From Candidatus Latescibacterota bacterium (GTDB taxonomy: Bacteria; Latescibacterota; UBA2968; UBA8231): a stretch of 64,000 bases of DNA. The stretch lies in contig CBDFJF010000001.1 of NCBI GenBank assembly GCA_965248265.1, forward strand, positions 1,024,001-1,088,000, read 5' to 3'. Under the pieces are notes generated by a model. That model was given only the letters and a program-made list of their open reading frames with translations. It was not told the DNA's origin and ran no database searches. The position numbers and the translations under genes are program-made. Every line of letters begins with the position of its first letter. Position 1 is the first letter of the stretch. Below, one piece after another: positions 652-10,007 of the stretch.

Positions 652-3600
652 TTATCGGCCGCGGTCCACGCTGGCGTACACGACCGGGATGAGTAGCAGG
701 GTGAGGGCCGAAGAGAGGATCAGACCGCCGATGACGGTGATAGCCAGGGGAGCGCGGACCTCGGCTCCTTCACCCAGGCCCAGGGCCATGGGCAACAGCG
801 CGAGTACGGTCGTCGACGTCGTCATCATAATCGGCCGGAAGCGGACCTCGGCCCCGCGCGCGACGGCAGCCATCTTCTCCATGCCCTCGTCACGCCGCAA
901 GTGGTTGATATAGTCGACCAACACGATGGCGTTGTTGACGACTATGCCGGCGAGCATGACGAGACCGATGAGGACGACGACGCTGATCGTCGTGCCCGTC
1001 GCCAGCAGGGCGGCGGCGGTGCCCGTCAATCCCAGGGGGATCGTGAACATGATGATGAGCGGATGCAATAGGGACTCGAACTGCGATGCCATGACCAGGT
1101 AGACGAGAAACACCGCCAGCATGAGGGCGAGCTTCATGCTGTCGAAGGATTTCACCATCTCCTCGTTCTGGCCTCTCATGGTGATGGAAAACCCCTCTGG
1201 CAGAACAATGTCCCGGAGCGCGTGCTCGATCTCCGAGACGGCGCCGCCCAGGTCCCGGCCCTGCAGGTTCGCCGACACCAGGGCCACACGTTGCTGGCCT
1301 ACGCGGCGGATCTCGGACGGTCCCTCAACAGCTGCCACGTGGGCTACCGACGACAGCGCCACCGGCAGCGGGTAGGAGCTCGGGCTCACGACCATCCGCT
1401 TCAGGTCTTCGAGGGTCTCACGCTCTTCATCAAGGGCGCGAACGCGGATGTCGATCCTGCGATCCCGGCGGGTAAGCCTCGTGGCCACCTCACCCTGAAG
1501 CTTGTTGCGCAGCAGCTCGCCGATCTGCTGGGCGGTAGTGCCCAGCTCGGCGACGCGCTGGCGATCGAGGGAAATCTGAATCTCCGGCTGTCCAACTGTC
1601 GCGCTTGAGCGGATGTCCGTGATCCCGTCGATACGGGTGAGGCGCCCGGCGATGTCGCCGGCGAGAAGGCGCAGTGTCGGCAGACTGTACCCGGCCACTT
1701 CCACTTGCACGGGCGCCCGGTGAGAGAAGTACGATGGCCGCGAGAACTTGTGGGTCAGCTCCGGTTCATCCGCGAGGGCGGCGCGTACCTGCGCCATCAC
1801 AGCTTCTTCCTCGGTCCCCTGACGCAGGCGCACGATCAGTTGGGCCATGTGCTCCCTTTTCTCTCCCGTTATCCCGCCGACCTGAGCATTGGTGCCCACC
1901 AGGGAGAACACGGAGGCCACGGCTGAAAGCCTTGCAACCTTTTGATCGATGGTGGCAACCCATGCGGCCGTCTGTTCGAGCGGGGTTCCCGGTTTCCACT
2001 CCAGATCGACGACAAATTCTCCCTGGCTCATCTCCGGTATCAACTCCACTCCGAGGCTCCGGGCATGATGGAGCGTGACTACGGCGGCGACGATGGCGAC
2101 GCCGAACACGGCCAGTCGGTGTCGGAAGGACCAGCTCAGAACGCGCGGGTAAGCCCGTTGAAGTGCATTGAACACGAGGTCGAAGAGCCAGTAGGCCGGA
2201 AGCAACGGGACAGACAACAGTCGGCGGACCGCCGCCGTACGCGCTCGCATGCCTCGAATGGAGGCCGCCATCCCGGCCACGCCGGGGCTGGTTGCCTGAC
2301 CCGAAGTCGGTACGGTCGTCCCGGCGACGCTCATCGAGGAAAGCATCGGGATGAGCGTGAACGCGACGAGCAAGGATGCCAGCAGCGAGTACGTCACCGT
2401 GAGCGCCTGATCTCGAAAGAGCTGGCCGGCAACCCCTTCCACGAATACGATCGGCAGGAATACACAAATCGTCGTCATCGTCGCCGTGACGACGGCGCGG
2501 CTCACCTCGCTGGCGCCGCGCCGCGCCGCCTCCATGGCACTGGCGCCACGGTCGCGGCAGCGCTGCACACTCTCGAGGACGACAATCGAATTGTCGACGA
2601 GCATACCGATCCCCAGAGCCAACCCGCCCAGGGACATGATGTTCAAGCTGATGTCGAAGGCGAACATCACGAAGAACGTGGTGATCACCGAAAGAGGTAT
2701 CGACAACCCGATGATGAGGGTGCTTTTGAGGGAACGCAAAAAGAAGAAGAGGATCAGCACGGCCAGGAAGCCGCCGATGATGGCGGTTTCCAGTACCTGG
2801 TCCACCGCTTGCTGAATGAACGTGGCCTGATCGAAGACGATCTCCATGCCGCCACCATGCCGCAGTGGCGGGCTCTCTTCGAGGAAAGCATCCAGACGGT
2901 CCCGCAGGTCGCTGCTCACCGTTACGGTGTTGGAGTCGCCTTCCTTGAAGATCGCCACCTCTACCCCCTCGCGGCCGTTGATGCGCGTGACCAGGTCTCT
3001 GTCGCGGTGGCCCCGCGACACTCGCCCTACATCCGCGAGCTTGATCGGCGCGCGGTCGATCAGCCCGATGACGATCTGAGCGATATCGTCGAGGGTCTCG
3101 AACTCGTTCAATGTCCGCACGAGGAACTCTGACTCGCCGTCTTTGAGAACCCCGCCGGTGAGATTGACGTTTTCCTCGCCCAGGCGGCGAGTCACCTGAT
3201 CGACGGGAATCCCCAGGTAGTCAAGACGGGCAGTACTGACCTCTACCTGGATCTCTTCCTCCAACCCGCCTTCGATGCGGACCGCCGCGACGCCTGCGAG
3301 GCTCTCCAACCCCGGTCGCAACTGCTCCTGGGCAATGCGGCGCAGCTCCATTAGGTGAACATCGCCGTAGAGAACCACGCGCATGATGGGATCCAGGCTC
3401 GGATCGAAGCGCAGCAGGATGGACGGGCTGGAGTCGTGAGGGGGAAACCCACCCGTGGTTATTTCGAGCTTCTCGCGTATTTCGAGTGACGCGAAGTCCA
3501 TGTTCGTCCCCCAGGCGAACTGGACGATGACATCGGAAACGCCTGGCCGGGAAATTGAGGAGACGTTGACGACGTTGCTCGCCACGCTGGCTCGCTTCTC

Positions 3601-3801
3601 AATGGGCTCCGAAAGCAGGCGTTCGATTTCCTGCGTCGCGGCACCTTCGTACTCCGTGCGTACCGTGATGGTCGGATAGGTGATGTCGGGCAGCAGATTG
3701 ACCGCCAGGCGTGAAAACCCTTCAGAGCCGAAGGCCAGGATGGCGACCATGAGCATGGCCACCGTCACCCGGCGCGTGGTCGAAAACTGGACCAGTTTCA
3801 C
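652..3801 (-). CDS. RND efflux permease subunit (AcrB/AcrD/AcrF family)
   Basis: 1049 aa; GMLVDNSIVVLE, GIVVNNAIVLVD and RFRPIMMT motifs; 12-TM pattern. Confidence 0.96.
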   Translation of the reverse strand: MKLVQFSTTRRVTVAMLMVAILAFGSEGFSRLAVNLLPDITYPTITVRTEYEGAATQEIERLLSEPIEKRASVASNVVNVSSISRPGVSDVIVQFAWGTNMDFASLEIREKLEITTGGFPPHDSSPSILLRFDPSLDPIMRVVLYGDVHLMELRRIAQEQLRPGLESLAGVAAVRIEGGLEEEIQVEVSTARLDYLGIPVDQVTRRLGEENVNLTGGVLKDGESEFLVRTLNEFETLDDIAQIVIGLIDRAPIKLADVGRVSRGHRDRDLVTRINGREGVEVAIFKEGDSNTVTVSSDLRDRLDAFLEESPPLRHGGGMEIVFDQATFIQQAVDQVLETAIIGGFLAVLILFFFLRSLKSTLIIGLSIPLSVITTFFVMFAFDISLNIMSLGGLALGIGMLVDNSIVVLESVQRCRDRGASAMEAARRGASEVSRAVVTATMTTICVFLPIVFVEGVAGQLFRDQALTVTYSLLASLLVAFTLIPMLSSMSVAGTTVPTSGQATSPGVAGMAASIRGMRARTAAVRRLLSVPLLPAYWLFDLVFNALQRAYPRVLSWSFRHRLAVFGVAIVAAVVTLHHARSLGVELIPEMSQGEFVVDLEWKPGTPLEQTAAWVATIDQKVARLSAVASVFSLVGTNAQVGGITGEKREHMAQLIVRLRQGTEEEAVMAQVRAALADEPELTHKFSRPSYFSHRAPVQVEVAGYSLPTLRLLAGDIAGRLTRIDGITDIRSSATVGQPEIQISLDRQRVAELGTTAQQIGELLRNKLQGEVATRLTRRDRRIDIRVRALDEERETLEDLKRMVVSPSSYPLPVALSSVAHVAAVEGPSEIRRVGQQRVALVSANLQGRDLGGAVSEIEHALRDIVLPEGFSITMRGQNEEMVKSFDSMKLALMLAVFLVYLVMASQFESLLHPLIIMFTIPLGLTGTAAALLATGTTISVVVLIGLVMLAGIVVNNAIVLVDYINHLRRDEGMEKMAAVARGAEVRFRPIMMTTSTTVLALLPMALGLGEGAEVRAPLAITVIGGLILSSALTLLLIPVVYASVDRGR

Positions 3802-4934
3802 GGACTCGCCTCGCCCGCCTCTTCCTTCGGGGCTGACCCTACTATGCGGACGAGGGTGCCTTCTTTGAGTCCCTTGTGGCCGACGGTAACCAGCATGTCA
3901 CCCTCAGCTACTCCGGAGAGCACTTCGACGTGGTCGCCCTCTATCAGACCGAGCTCGACTGGAACCTTGCGCGCCTTGGAATCGACAATGGCGAAGACGT
4001 CGTCCTCTTCCGTCTCCAGAACGAGCGCCTTCTTGGGAATCACCAGCGTCGAAGGGCGCCGCCCGGTGACGAGCCGGACGGTAGCGAACATGCCGGGTCT
4101 GAGCTGATCGCTCCCCGGCACCTGCAGAGTCACCTTCACCGTGCCACTCTCCGGGATCACCTCGGGGCTGATCATGTGGATGCGGGAATCGAAGGTGCGG
4201 CCCGGTAGGGCCTGAACGCTGATGGTCGCCAACTGCCCGGGTTGGACATCGTACATGCGTCGTTCCGGGATGAAGACGCGCGCGAGGAGGAGGTCGAAAT
4301 CGGCGATGACGCAGATCTCCTGATTCCCGTTCACGAGATCGCCCCGTTCGACCAGCCGTCGCGTGATCACGCCCCCTATCGGGGCGCGGATGGTCGTGTG
4401 AGCGAAACCGATCTCGGCTTGTTCCAATCCTACCTTGCTGCTCTCGTAGCGCAGCCGGGTCGTCTCGAACCGCGCTCGGCTGACCATGTTTCTCTTGTGC
4501 AGGTCCTGGACGCGTTCGAAGCTCGACTTCGCGTCCTCATGTTCCGCCCGCGACTGCCGCAACTGCAGGCTGGCCTCCTCCTGCTCGAGCTCTACGAGGA
4601 CCTGGCCTGGCCTGACCTCGTCTCCCTCCTCCAAGTGCAACTGCTCGACCAGCGCGGTCGTGCGCGCGTGGACCGTGACCTGACGCTTTGCATCCAGTCT
4701 GGCGTAGGTCTCTAGGTGGATGAACAGATCTTCTCTGACCACCGGCTCCGCTCTCACGGGAATCGCCGTCGCGGCAGGAGCTTCTTCCGAGCTGCTCCCT
4801 TCAACCGCGCTTCCGCTCTCGCTCTCCTCCCGCTCTCCGCAAGCTGCCAGGAGAGCAAGGCAAACGCCAACGACACCCATGACAGTGACTGGCCGGCCGC
4901 TATGCTGATACGTCATCCGAATCTCCCGGGACAC
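3798..4934 (-). CDS. RND periplasmic adaptor (membrane fusion protein), lipoprotein
   Basis: LAAC lipobox, lipoyl-half motifs (EGDEVRPGQVL, IRAPIGGVI), LRPGMF; overlaps the permease start. Exact start codon uncertain. Confidence 0.93.
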   Translation of the reverse strand: MSREIRMTYQHSGRPVTVMGVVGVCLALLAACGEREESESGSAVEGSSSEEAPAATAIPVRAEPVVREDLFIHLETYARLDAKRQVTVHARTTALVEQLHLEEGDEVRPGQVLVELEQEEASLQLRQSRAEHEDAKSSFERVQDLHKRNMVSRARFETTRLRYESSKVGLEQAEIGFAHTTIRAPIGGVITRRLVERGDLVNGNQEICVIADFDLLLARVFIPERRMYDVQPGQLATISVQALPGRTFDSRIHMISPEVIPESGTVKVTLQVPGSDQLRPGMFATVRLVTGRRPSTLVIPKKALVLETEEDDVFAIVDSKARKVPVELGLIEGDHVEVLSGVAEGDMLVTVGHKGLKEGTLVRIVGSAPKEEAGEASP

Positions 4935-5721: not shown

Positions 5722-6591
5722 TCAAGCAGCAAGTTTGGTTGAATGCTGCTCGAATGCTGCGGGTGTTGCGTAATCCAGGGTGGAATGACTCCTTTCTCGA
5801 TTGTAAAAAATCTCGATGTAGTCGAACAGGCTGCGATACGCGGCCCGGTAGTTGAGCCAGTGTTCGTGGTAGGTCAACTCGGTCTTGAGCAGATGGAAGA
5901 AGGACTCAGCCACGGCGTTATCCCAGCAGTCGCCCTTACGGCTCATACTCTGCACAAAGCCGTGTTTGCTGACCCAGTTAGTGAACGCGGTGCAGGCGTA
6001 TTGAACGCCGCGATCGGAATGGATGATCAGACCCCTCGGCGGACGACGTTGAGCTACAGCCCGCTGCAGCGCGACCAGCGCCACGCGGTGATCCAGTGCC
6101 GAGCTCAACGCCCAACCCACCACGCGCCTGGAGTACAGGTCGATGACGACGACCAAATACAACCAGCCGCGACCGACGCTGAGGTAGGTCAGGTCGCTGA
6201 CCCACACTTGATTGGGGCGCTGTGCGGTGAAATCGCGCTGCAAACGGTTCGGCGCCACCGCAAATCGATGTTGCGAGTTGGTCGTCACCTTGAAACGGCG
6301 TCGCACAATCGAACGCAGACCCAACACACGCATGCGCCGTGCAACGCGATTCTCGCCCACCTGCCAGCCTCCGTCTATCAGGGCGCGGGTGATCTTTGGG
6401 CTACCGGAGCGCCGCTTGCTGGCTTCAAACAACTTGTTGATCTCGACATCCAGTCGCCGAGTCTGCTCAGCTCGAGGACTGATCGGGCGCTGCTGCCAGG
6501 CGTAGAAACCGCTACGCGACACCCGCAGCACGCGACACAACATAGTGACCGGGTACATCGCCTTCTCCACCTCGATGAAGCGATACCTCAT
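5722..6591 (-). CDS. IS3-family transposase OrfB (rve/DDE integrase core)
   Basis: WVSDLTY, IHSDRGVQY, DNAVAESFF DDE motifs. Confidence 0.96.
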   Translation of the reverse strand: MRYRFIEVEKAMYPVTMLCRVLRVSRSGFYAWQQRPISPRAEQTRRLDVEINKLFEASKRRSGSPKITRALIDGGWQVGENRVARRMRVLGLRSIVRRRFKVTTNSQHRFAVAPNRLQRDFTAQRPNQVWVSDLTYLSVGRGWLYLVVVIDLYSRRVVGWALSSALDHRVALVALQRAVAQRRPPRGLIIHSDRGVQYACTAFTNWVSKHGFVQSMSRKGDCWDNAVAESFFHLLKTELTYHEHWLNYRAAYRSLFDYIEIFYNRERSHSTLDYATPAAFEQHSTKLAA

Positions 6592-7915: not shown

Positions 7916-8089
7916 ATGGACTCTGTCATGACATCTGATTTCGTTGATGCACGCACATTCATCGGAAAGACCGTCGAGGTCAAGATTGATCGCCCGCTCG
8001 GGTCAAGGCATCCAGAATCTGGGCTCGTGTATCCGGTCAATTATGGTTTTCTCCCCAACGTGAATATCAAGCCGGGAGGGGTTCGATGA
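7916..8089 (+). pseudogene. Truncated inorganic pyrophosphatase-like gene (57-aa N-terminal fragment)
   Basis: Manual translation MDSVMTSDFVDARTFIGKTVEVKIDRPLGSRHPESGLVYPVNYGFLPNV...*; DRPLGS.HP and YPVNYG are PPase N-terminal motifs; the catalytic D-rich half is absent. Confidence 0.7.
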
Positions 8090-8421
8090 AGGTTCTGAAC
8101 ACGTGGTTACTCTACTATGTACACGATATGAATCGGGCAAAGGACTTCTACATGAAATCCTTTCACGTCGAACCCTTGAAGGAGACAGATGGTTGGACGG
8201 AACTAGATTTCGGATCAATCGTATTGGCGTTACACACGCTGCCCGCGCACCGAGCGAGTACTATGCCTCACGCTGGGTTAATCGTTCAAGTAACTGACCT
8301 AGACGAGGTTCGAGGAGACATAGAGCGCTACGGAGGACACCTGGTCGAAAAACGGGATCCGAAGTATCTCTGCTTTGAAGATTCCGAGGGCAATGGCTTT
8401 GAACTTTGTTCGCCCGAGTAG
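8086..8421 (+). CDS. VOC/glyoxalase family protein
   Basis: YVHDMNRAKDFY...FEDSEGNGFEL pattern. Confidence 0.85.
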   Translation: MKVLNTWLLYYVHDMNRAKDFYMKSFHVEPLKETDGWTELDFGSIVLALHTLPAHRASTMPHAGLIVQVTDLDEVRGDIERYGGHLVEKRDPKYLCFEDSEGNGFELCSPE

Positions 8422-8539
8422 GATCGCGGCAGATGACCAATTGAGCCCAAAAGTGAATTTTTCACAGCAAGGCGCGCAGATTTCTTTTTATCTATGGGAA
8501 ACTTCGGTGAAACTTCGCGTTACCTGTTAGGAGCCTGCT

Positions 8540-9253
8540 GTGAAATACACACTCATCCTGCTCTTCGCCCTCGCCGTCGGTCTGCTGAACAATGGCTGCG
8601 GTGGCGCTTCCGACGCCAGGCCGACCCGCCCCTCATCGGTCGATACAAGCAACTATGATGGCGGCCAAGCCTCGGGAGGGAGCTCGACGTTCTCCATCAC
8701 CGACCGCACGGGCAAAACCTGGGACGTGACCCACGCTTTTGAGAAATACGGCTTTATCCCGCAATCCTTCCAATACGGCCTGGGTCCCTTTGCGATAACT
8801 CCCATCAACAACCCGCAGATGCTTTCTCCGGGGGACTCCGGTTATCCTCAGGACAGCGATTCCTTCACCATCTTGGGCACCACGCTCAATGGTTTTACGC
8901 GCGCTTATCCAATATGGGTCATGAGCCGGCACGAAGTGGCCAACGAACGCTTCGGGCAGGGCCACGTCGCGGTCGCCTACTGACCGCTGGTGAATCTGGC
9001 TGCCGTGTACAGCCGCGAAATCGACGGAAAAGTTCTGACCCTCAGCGCCAGTGGCTGGACCTACCGCTGGACCTTCGTGCTCTTCGACTACGAGACCGAA
9101 AGCCTGTGGTACCATCTGGAGGGCGAAGACGGCCTGACCAGCATTAGTGGTTTCTACGCGGACCGCAAACTGCCCGAACTGGAATCGACCTTCACCCGCT
9201 GGGATGCGTGGAAGAGGCAGAACCGGGATACCCAGTTGCTCAAGTATCCCTGA
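8540..9253 (+). CDS. DUF3179-family lipoprotein, probable selenoprotein (UGA at 8981-8983 read as Sec, 237 aa)
   Basis: ORFs 8540-8983 and 8990-9253 are in one frame, separated only by TGA-CCG-CTG. The joined sequence RAYP.WVMSRHEVANE...VAVAY-U-PLVNLAAVYSR...LSASGW...LFDYETESLW...WDAWK matches DUF3179, with TGA at the C of the CPLC-type motif. Confidence 0.85.
8984..9026 (+). promoter_or_regulatory. Candidate bacterial SECIS hairpin
   Basis: GGCTG (8998-9002) / CAGCC (9010-9014) stem with a 7-nt loop about 19 nt after the UGA; possible lower CCG/CGG pairing. Confidence 0.55.
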
Positions 9254-9347
9254 TCCTGCGGGCTGATTCCCGGCGTTCGTCGCCGTCGATGTCCCGCTCC
9301 GCCGCAAAGGCTCCAGCAGGTCGGCCCTATCTGCGTTCTATTGGATG

Positions 9348-10007
9348 TTACTCTGCTTTCTCACGGAAGTAGTGGCGTATCTTCGGGTCGCGGAATCGCG
9401 CCACGCTGTTGTGGCCCCAGACCGCCAGGCCAATGCCACCTTTCGGAGCGGTGTCGAGGGTGAGCCGATTCACGAGTCGACCGTCGATGTAGGTGGTGAT
9501 GGAGTTGCCGCGGACGGCAAGAACGACGTCATACTCATGGTCGCGCTCGAAAACGTGATTGACGACATCGAGCTTCGTGTGGTCCGGAGCCATAATGGCT
9601 GCCGTCTGCCACCCCAATAAGGGCGCGAAGTGGTAGTCCTGGTTGTCGTGGATGTTAAACCAGAGCTGGGCTGATCCGCCTTTGACTATGGTCATCTGTA
9701 CCTTCAACTCGAAGGATCGCCAGGTTTCGTCGCCCTTAACGATGCGGGCCCGGTAACCGCCGCCTGCATCGGCCATGATGGTGTCCCCCTCCCGTGACCA
9801 CGCAGCCGGCGTCCATGGATCGCCATTCACGTCCCATCCGTCCAGACCTTCGCCCACCAGGAGCGATTCCCATTTTATCACGCCCTGCGACCCGCCCATG
9901 TCTGTCCGCCCGTAGTCGTTCTCGGGGCCGGGCTCCTCAGCGCCCGCGAACGCGACCATCGCTACGAGGCCCATCAGGGCGATTCCAGTCATCCATGCGA
10001 AGCTCAT
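9348..10007 (-). CDS. DUF1080 / 3-keto-disaccharide hydrolase-like secreted protein
   Basis: Signal peptide; WESLL.G.GLDGW, FELKV, VRGNSITTYIDG, GGIGL...FRDPKIR; paralogue at 27009. Confidence 0.8.
   Translation of the reverse strand: MSFAWMTGIALMGLVAMVAFAGAEEPGPENDYGRTDMGGSQGVIKWESLLVGEGLDGWDVNGDPWTPAAWSREGDTIMADAGGGYRARIVKGDETWRSFELKVQMTIVKGGSAQLWFNIHDNQDYHFAPLLGWQTAAIMAPDHTKLDVVNHVFERDHEYDVVLAVRGNSITTYIDGRLVNRLTLDTAPKGGIGLAVWGHNSVARFRDPKIRHYFREKAE

Follow-up and report, generated by a model that had tools for sequence, protein, structure and literature searches.

Does the TGA at positions 8981-8983 of the 64,000-nt stretch of Candidatus Latescibacterota DNA analyzed here (contig CBDFJF010000001.1, positions 1,024,001 to 1,088,000; hereafter the window) terminate a gene, or is it read as selenocysteine (Sec) inside a longer one? 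The codon joins two open reading frames (ORFs) lying in one frame, and reading through it yields a 237-residue protein with the local text VAVAY-U-PLVNLAAVY. An initial annotation, made from the letters only, had taken this for a lipid-anchored selenoprotein of the DUF3179 family, with Sec at the family's conserved Cys and a GGCTG/CAGCC hairpin beginning at the 15th nucleotide past the TGA; both the joined frames and the hairpin could be read directly in the window. From sequence comparison, we consider it very probable that this is a genuine Sec-decoded gene for an exported, short DUF3179 protein (coordinates in Table 1). In the proposed mechanism, UGA codon 148 would be decoded as Sec by SelB and tRNA-Sec, and decoding would be directed by an in-frame stem-loop (upper stem 8997-9015) starting 14 nt past the UGA.

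The machinery for Sec decoding was found in the genome. Profile search identified selA (560.9 bits), selB (332.8 bits) and selD (352.2 bits), each above its curated cut-off, together with a tRNA-Sec with anticodon TCA (68.9 bits), so that the check on these four components suggested by the initial annotation came out in its favor. The selD gene is a selenoprotein gene too (C-G-U-A-A-K; L014, G000:C2:1010876-1011799), with one in-frame TGA and a textbook-like Sec insertion sequence (SECIS) element, a 7-bp stem with a GGUC loop 17 nt past its UGA. At the locus itself, the window TGA was seen without any other letter in the contigs of four sequencing runs, as the initial annotation had expected of the reads; all four runs come from a single sample, from which the assembly was probably made, and hence are not independent. 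In each run the assembly-graph contigs are interrupted at 8996-9028, and word depth goes up ~15-fold there, as would fit a hairpin sequence that recurs in paralogues and in further organisms within the sample.

The TGA is held at a single column among homologues. The genome contains the short gene in five copies, which share 100, 62, 63, 49 and 45% identity with the query and have a single TGA apiece. A match to the query was obtained in 46 of 61 genomes (the source genome plus 60 relatives), 45-75% identity was seen for homologues that align from residue 1 to residue 237, and among the matches listed, all 32 of at least 45% identity that span codon 148 carry one TGA. In distinct TGA-bearing homologues collected by tblastn on the genome and the relatives' loci, TGA stood at the codon-148 column in 33 of 33. 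A second set came from scanning 185,579 species genomes with two peptide patterns (80 loci); because these patterns lie downstream of the TGA, this set was not selected for it. With both sets pooled, TGA occupied the codon-148 column in 62 of 62 distinct short-form matches of at least 43% identity. These 62 include kin and are not independent; their record titles span several phyla, with Candidatus Latescibacterota closest, and Calditrichota, KSB1, Gemmatimonadetes, Krumholzibacteriia and others represented. Two orthologues carry TAG codons besides the TGA (L038, in G012:C8, and G015:C1:3730762-3731310) and may be pseudogenes or assembly errors.

The TGA also coincides with the column of the Cys conserved in the family. 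Cys is the residue found there in distant DUF3179 proteins and in the first module of long DUF3179 paralogues (C-P-L-T or C-P-L-C); the second module of these paralogues shows H, D, A or S. Short proteins of the Cys type also occur in metagenome protein sets. The initial placement of the UGA at the conserved Cys is borne out by a homologue column of Cys or TGA, which Sec148 would occupy in the window protein.

Were the TGA an ordinary stop, the locus would contain a truncated gene with an untranslated remnant, or two genes. Automatic gene calls agree with this view: the public protein set has only the 147-aa N-terminal half (P0003), the split that the initial annotation had foreseen, and of the best 120 public homologues, 88 have residue 147 as their last, one stops a residue earlier, at 146, and 31 extend across the column. 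An in-frame GTG at 8990 is moreover on offer. However, this GTG lies inside a conserved motif and lacks a ribosome-binding site of its own, and the part 3' of the TGA shows protein-level conservation, third positions being where changes are most frequent. Across 24 complete homologues, differences at codon positions 1/2/3 amounted to 0.289/0.225/0.50 over codons +12 to +86, and the amino-acid-changing share of differences was 0.353 downstream of the TGA versus 0.494 upstream, the signature of translation under purifying selection. The Pfam DUF3179 match (PF11376; residues 88-235, E 1.7e-30, 106.9 bits, cut-off 27) runs across the TGA, and a TGA fixed at one column in every short form from several phyla is unlike what a decaying gene would show. 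We regard an ordinary stop at this position as very improbable.

Among the 31 public homologues that span the Sec column, it holds C in 16, R in 7, W in 6, T in 1 and S in 1. The six with W might be taken as a sign that the UGA yields not Sec but Trp, Cys or Gly, whether by near-cognate suppression or by a variant genetic code. These Trp forms (P0005, P0007, P0014, P0015, P0049 and one more) come in several cases from short contigs, among them metagenome pieces of 776-1348 nt, and we suspect, as the simplest account, that they are probably TGA translated with the Trp code by the gene caller. Because TGA ends the frame of the window gene and of 14 of 33 homologues, it is a stop in these genomes, which speaks against a reassigned codon; by our reading of the alignment, the 14 TGA frame ends appear to fall at the conserved C-terminus. 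Under read-through, furthermore, neither the Sec machinery nor the covarying hairpin placed for SelB would have a role. Decoding as an amino acid other than Sec thus deserves very little credence.

The hairpin itself is significant because of the homologue comparison only. The gap between the TGA and the GGCTG arm is 14 nt. RNAalifold placed the hairpin at alignment columns 17-22/30-35 (window 8997-9002/9010-9015), with both-side changes at three of the six pairs. Over 33 sequences the extended hairpin structure was 84.4% paired, compared with 24-50% in slid controls, and the lower-stem helix was 78.8% paired, several of its pairs being often broken. In 71 distinct TGA-bearing segments drawn from both homologue sets, core cells were 97.5% paired versus 19-49% with the 3' arm slid, and all five core pairs were kept in 65 segments across 19 stem variants; the pairing that the initial annotation had noticed in one sequence is therefore kept among homologues. 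Paired switches, from GGCTG/CAGCC to GGGTG/CACCC or GGGAG/CTCCC, recode residues on both arms, and therefore more than protein constraint alone acts on the hairpin arms. Codons +6 to +9, covering the 5' arm and the loop, are frozen (GCT 25/26, GCC 25/25, GTG 29/29, TAC 29/29), while Ala and Val are encoded elsewhere in the gene by 3-4 synonyms; third-position divergence was 0.091 in the hairpin codons versus 0.50-0.57 elsewhere, and CGTGTA was invariant in 33/33 homologue sequences.

The bacterial SECIS model, as given in PMC13188914, specifies a loop of 3-9 nt, an upper stem of 4-16 bp, a UGA-to-loop distance of 16-37 nt, a minimum free energy (MFE) of -7.5 kcal/mol or lower, and a G within the first two loop positions. 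As in that model, the window hairpin lies in coding sequence directly past the UGA. Its loop (7 nt), upper stem (6 bp) and UGA-to-loop gap (19 nt, 8984-9002) are all within range, and GU is present in the loop. The bare hairpin, at -7.5 to -7.6 kcal/mol, is borderline, and 8981-9030 with the lower stem reaches -14.3 kcal/mol. More distant UPLC/UPLT Sec-DUF3179 forms have a hairpin in the same register with a GUGUA-like loop, as in the window. An Rfam search of 8800-9300 returned no bacterial SECIS family and only a chance snoU54 match (E 3.1).

Several observations weigh against Sec decoding and export of this protein. Compared with shuffles, the hairpin alone folds at -16.1 versus a mean of -16.2 kcal/mol (z 0.03; 96/200 fold as well), so its single-sequence fold is no better than chance. 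One core pair is broken in 6 of the 71 segments. The loop G of the window stands third, not first or second as in the published model; strictly, a G at one of these two places results only when loop positions 1 and 7 pair, as U-A in the TCGTGTA loop of 9/71 segments; in the window these two bases are C and A, and the G would count as second should they stack. Some homologues have Arg, Thr or Ser at the Sec column (7/1/1 of the 31), and because Arg-type short homologues exist, Sec or Cys is not needed in every branch. The residues N-N-G before Cys20 are less typical of a lipobox, the usual rule making N-N-G-C atypical. Finally, the window copy is without redox neighbors; it is flanked by VOC-family and DUF1080 genes, and the nearby RND pump is 3.6 kb off, with an insertion sequence (IS) integrase between.

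The predicted product would be exported via an N-terminal signal peptide ending at Cys20 and would probably be lipid-anchored. The N-terminus has a positive residue, a hydrophobic run and then Cys20, which lines up with a lipobox-like Cys in orthologues (LSSGC, ISGC, LSAC, IGGC and others); most of the full-length orthologue frames compared show a hydrophobic N-terminus followed by such a Cys. Of the initial claim of a 237-aa lipid-anchored protein, then, the signal peptide and Cys20 stand, with canonical lipoboxes in orthologues, and the weak part is the L-N-N-G-C of the window itself. Behind the anchor, a disordered linker of ~30 residues, whose length and sequence vary between orthologues, would hold a compact beta-rich domain of ~185 residues with one DUF3179 module. 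The Pfam match is partial (positions 6-148 of a 292-position model, a single module). Because genomic paralogues of 400-520 aa match the query twice, canonical DUF3179 comprises two modules and the window protein one. No NCBIfam family was found for the window protein, and with residues 88-237 as query no longer fused form appeared among 260 candidates, which is weak evidence.

An AlphaFold2 model from a 31-row alignment (mean predicted local distance difference test score, pLDDT, 91.3; predicted template modeling score, pTM, 0.80) puts Sec148 at the end of a predicted beta-strand, 141-148, with the motif Y-U-P-L-V. Searching the PDB by sequence with the family profile returned no match better than E 0.93, Foldseek of the model against PDB gave nothing at E <= 0.001, and an ESM Atlas search with the natural Cys homologue P0009 gave no usable match. 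In structural comparison, residues ~117-221 of the model superposed on Rieske domains (3dqy_A, 3gce_A, 8hn2_B; Z 6.5-6.1, root-mean-square deviation (rmsd) 2.6-3.2 Å, 91-93 residues), and nearly all of the top 36 rows were Rieske; the best superposition (rmsd 2.9 Å, 91 residues) has a Z of 6.5, below the 7-8 often reached by unrelated models according to the tool's guidance. Unlike Rieske domains, the window protein lacks the CxH...CxxH ligands and has one Sec instead. Rieske membership was rejected: hhalign against 29 Rieske domains from the genome and relatives gave 0.3%, and the ligands are absent. The likeness seen in the model may serve as a lead, as a fold-level resemblance at most.

What chemistry could the Sec support? 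Motif position +3 in the 62 short forms is V in 51, A in 6, I in 2, R in 2 and Q in 1, and never C or T. A distal Cys, in G-L-T-C-I at query position 201, occurs in at least 90% of rows of the public full-length homologue alignment; in the 62 Sec short forms this position is C in 33, G in 19, S in 6, T in 2, A in 1 and R in 1. The window protein has Ser at 201, and Cys20 is its only Cys. With Ser at 201, Val at +3 and Cys20 in the signal, a selenol but no thiol is therefore left in the mature window protein, and the initial description as UxxV, with no resolving Cys and the sole Cys in the signal peptide, is accurate for the window copy. No residue of the mature protein other than Sec is redox-active, and since that protein is without any Cys, the lone selenol would have to act alone and could form no internal selenenylsulfide. 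The Arg forms mentioned above (V-H-R-P-L; P0026, P0028, P0029, P0035, P0036, P0042, P0059 and L129, the last with a CGC codon) keep the G-L-T-C-I Cys.

Genomic surroundings were compared in 21 contexts, comprising the five copies in the genome and 16 from relatives. A recurrent cluster was observed, with one to three tandem Sec-DUF3179 genes, gamma-glutamyltranspeptidase and a pyridoxal phosphate aldolase. A gene for a protein with Thioredox_DsbH and DsbD_N domains occurs in 8 of the 21, and so does one for the radical-SAM (seleno)protein ArsS (TIGR04167, 432.7 bits). In 12 contexts there is a ~300-aa protein that carries a signal peptide and alternates in a beta-barrel-like pattern, directly adjoining the Sec-DUF3179 gene in 10 by our reading of the map; neither Pfam nor NCBIfam matched this protein (e.g. 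L081, G000:C2:1349277-1350218, plus 11 loci). Joining the cluster in changing combinations are a sensor kinase, a long DUF3179, a porin, a disulfide-reductase/NapH-like fusion and an RND pump. The orthologues nearest to the window copy (65-75% identity) are located in this cluster, and the window copy resembles a cluster member that has become dispersed.

Under the preferred assignment as a Sec-decoded protein, the selenol might attack a substrate and then be recycled by an outside thiol, for example that of a thioredoxin-like periplasmic partner. Extracytoplasmic thiol-redox relays run from CcdA/DsbD through TlpA/ResA/Etrx-type thioredoxins to client proteins. The window protein resembles their members in being predicted to be exported and membrane-tethered with one reactive chalcogen, and in relatives Thioredox_DsbH + DsbD_N and the flavoprotein/NapH-like fusion share its cluster; the DsbH/DsbD_N gene, ArsS and the disulfide-reductase/NapH-like fusion are the redox neighbors that recur across the contexts. 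Unlike relay thioredoxins, it has no thioredoxin fold, and no TlpA or CcdA gene adjoins the window copy. A redox-relay function for a membrane-tethered periplasmic single-selenol protein is offered as a tentative suggestion.

The same Sec gene could instead supply a soft-ligand site, its selenol capturing or passing a metalloid or thiophilic metal, such as As(III), Se, Hg or Cu(I), at a periplasmic position with an outer-membrane channel on one side and inner-membrane or efflux machinery on the other. The presence of the arsenosugar enzyme ArsS in 8 of the contexts and of the barrel-like protein in 12 (adjoining in 10) would suit this role, as would RND efflux pairs close by in the window and three relatives, and a lone selenol without a partner thiol is suited to ligand binding. 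Yet a metal site built on a single ligand atom is weak, neither Pfam, NCBIfam, Foldseek nor structural comparison matched a metal-binding family or fold, the RND pump scored below the heavy-metal-class cut-off, and the window copy has neither ArsS nor barrel neighbors. We hold a soft-ligand role to be somewhat doubtful. More speculative still, and improbable as a whole, is the broader picture in which short U-P-L-V proteins form a practically Sec-obligate subfamily, single-module, tethered to the membrane in the periplasm and Rieske-like in beta-fold, with a lone selenol with or without the distal Cys, acting in an undescribed extracytoplasmic pathway of an outer-membrane barrel, the radical-SAM 'selenodomain' enzyme ArsS and a DsbH/DsbD_N reductase for a metalloid or an organosulfur/organoselenium compound.

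How much of this is new? In the reviews PMC9312934 (2022) and PMC13188914 (2026), DUF3179 is listed as a selenoprotein family with the motif UxxC/T, credited to Zhang & Gladyshev 2007, in agreement with the initial statement that some DUF3179 members are selenoproteins; in that 2007 paper (PMC1976440), the Table 2 passage of new families does not contain the name DUF3179. The window gene shares with the published forms the Pfam family, Sec at the first conserved Cys column and the hairpin at the same place. It differs in its motif, U-P-L-V and not UxxC/UxxT, in its half size, with one of the two modules plus a lipoprotein-type signal, in the TGA found in 62/62 genomic short forms, and in the absence of another Cys from the mature window protein. 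In the literature naming DUF3179 we found no experiment on any DUF3179 protein, and we met no description there of the U-P-L-V single-module subtype, of the all-Sec genomic copies or of the complete thiol loss in the window copy, although supplements may list short forms. The family-level Sec claim is not new; the contribution is a new, well-supported subtype together with a corrected annotation and does not amount to a discovery.

The subtype extends a known selenoprotein family with UxxV, a single module, a predicted lipid anchor and Sec in all genomic copies, and a selenol without an internal thiol partner provides a clean test of the DUF3179 role and of Sec retention. On the annotation side, the window gene, four genomic paralogues and dozens of orthologues are split or truncated by gene callers; because of this, selenoprotein counts for these little-studied marine phyla are too low. 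Tandem arrays of two or three diverged Sec-DUF3179 genes were also observed (L065/L068 in G008 and G021, L069, L070; 47-71% identity), and together with the five genomic copies they make Sec-DUF3179 a sizeable part of these organisms' selenoprotein set.

Table 1. Features of the Sec-DUF3179 locus in window coordinates; Sec-related and protein-level entries are predictions.
Feature	Positions	Strand	Remarks	Basis
Shine-Dalgarno-like AGGAG	8529-8533	+	6 nt ahead of GTG start	read from sequence
Whole gene, putative short DUF3179 subfamily selenoprotein	8540-9253	+	237 codons + TGA stop	
N-terminal ORF half	8540-8983	+	147 aa	ORF list
Signal peptide (predicted), ends L-N-N-G-C	8540-8599	+	K2, hydrophobic run LILLFALAVGLL; helix 2-17 predicted	
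Cys20 codon TGC	8597-8599	+	sole Cys codon of gene	
Low-complexity linker, ~residues 21-50	8600-8689	+	pLDDT 55-65, without secondary structure	
Single DUF3179 module, residues 88-235	8801-9244	+	profile positions 6-148 of 292	
UGA codon 148, putatively read as Sec	8981-8983	+	sole interrupting TGA in frame	
Candidate lower SECIS stem, weaker support	8984-9027	+	in MFE structure	
C-terminal ORF half	8990-9253	+	87 aa; same frame as N-terminal half	ORF list
SECIS upper stem-loop (candidate)	8997-9015	+	6 pairs: U-G, G-C, G-C, C-G, U-A, G-C	RNAalifold consensus
SECIS 5' arm GGCTG	8998-9002	+	pairs with CAGCC 9010-9014	
SECIS loop CCGUGUA	9003-9009	+	7 nt	
Ser201 codon AGC	9140-9142	+	column is Cys in most of subfamily	
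True stop TGA	9251-9253	+	no hairpin behind	read from sequence

The neighbors of the gene in the window are a VOC/glyoxalase-family gene (8086-8418) on one side and, on the other, a DUF1080 gene (9351-10007) in convergent orientation. A sigma-70 scan gave no promoter-like site, and two terminator-like sites were within chance expectation. The RND efflux pair lies on the minus strand at 655-4934 and consists of an AcrB-family permease (1049 aa) and a periplasmic adaptor (378 aa); the pump reached the curated cut-off of neither the multidrug nor the CusA/CzcA model, so its class is not assignable. The same two RND families were found near Sec-DUF3179 in three relatives (L072, L073, L077). Between the pump and the selenoprotein gene lies an IS-type transposase (rve integrase core, HTH_21; 5725-6591, minus strand), which may explain the separation of the window copy from the gene cluster of its orthologues. 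In the eight contexts with ArsS, that gene is one or two genes from Sec-DUF3179, as in L083 (G000:C2:75515-76603) and L051; in L051 a stop-to-stop frame of 621 aa runs from Sec-DUF3179 straight into ArsS-like sequence, which might reflect a fused gene or just the accidental absence of a stop codon. A minus-strand ORF (8633-9307, 224 aa) overlaps the Sec-DUF3179 gene, and we take it to be a shadow frame.

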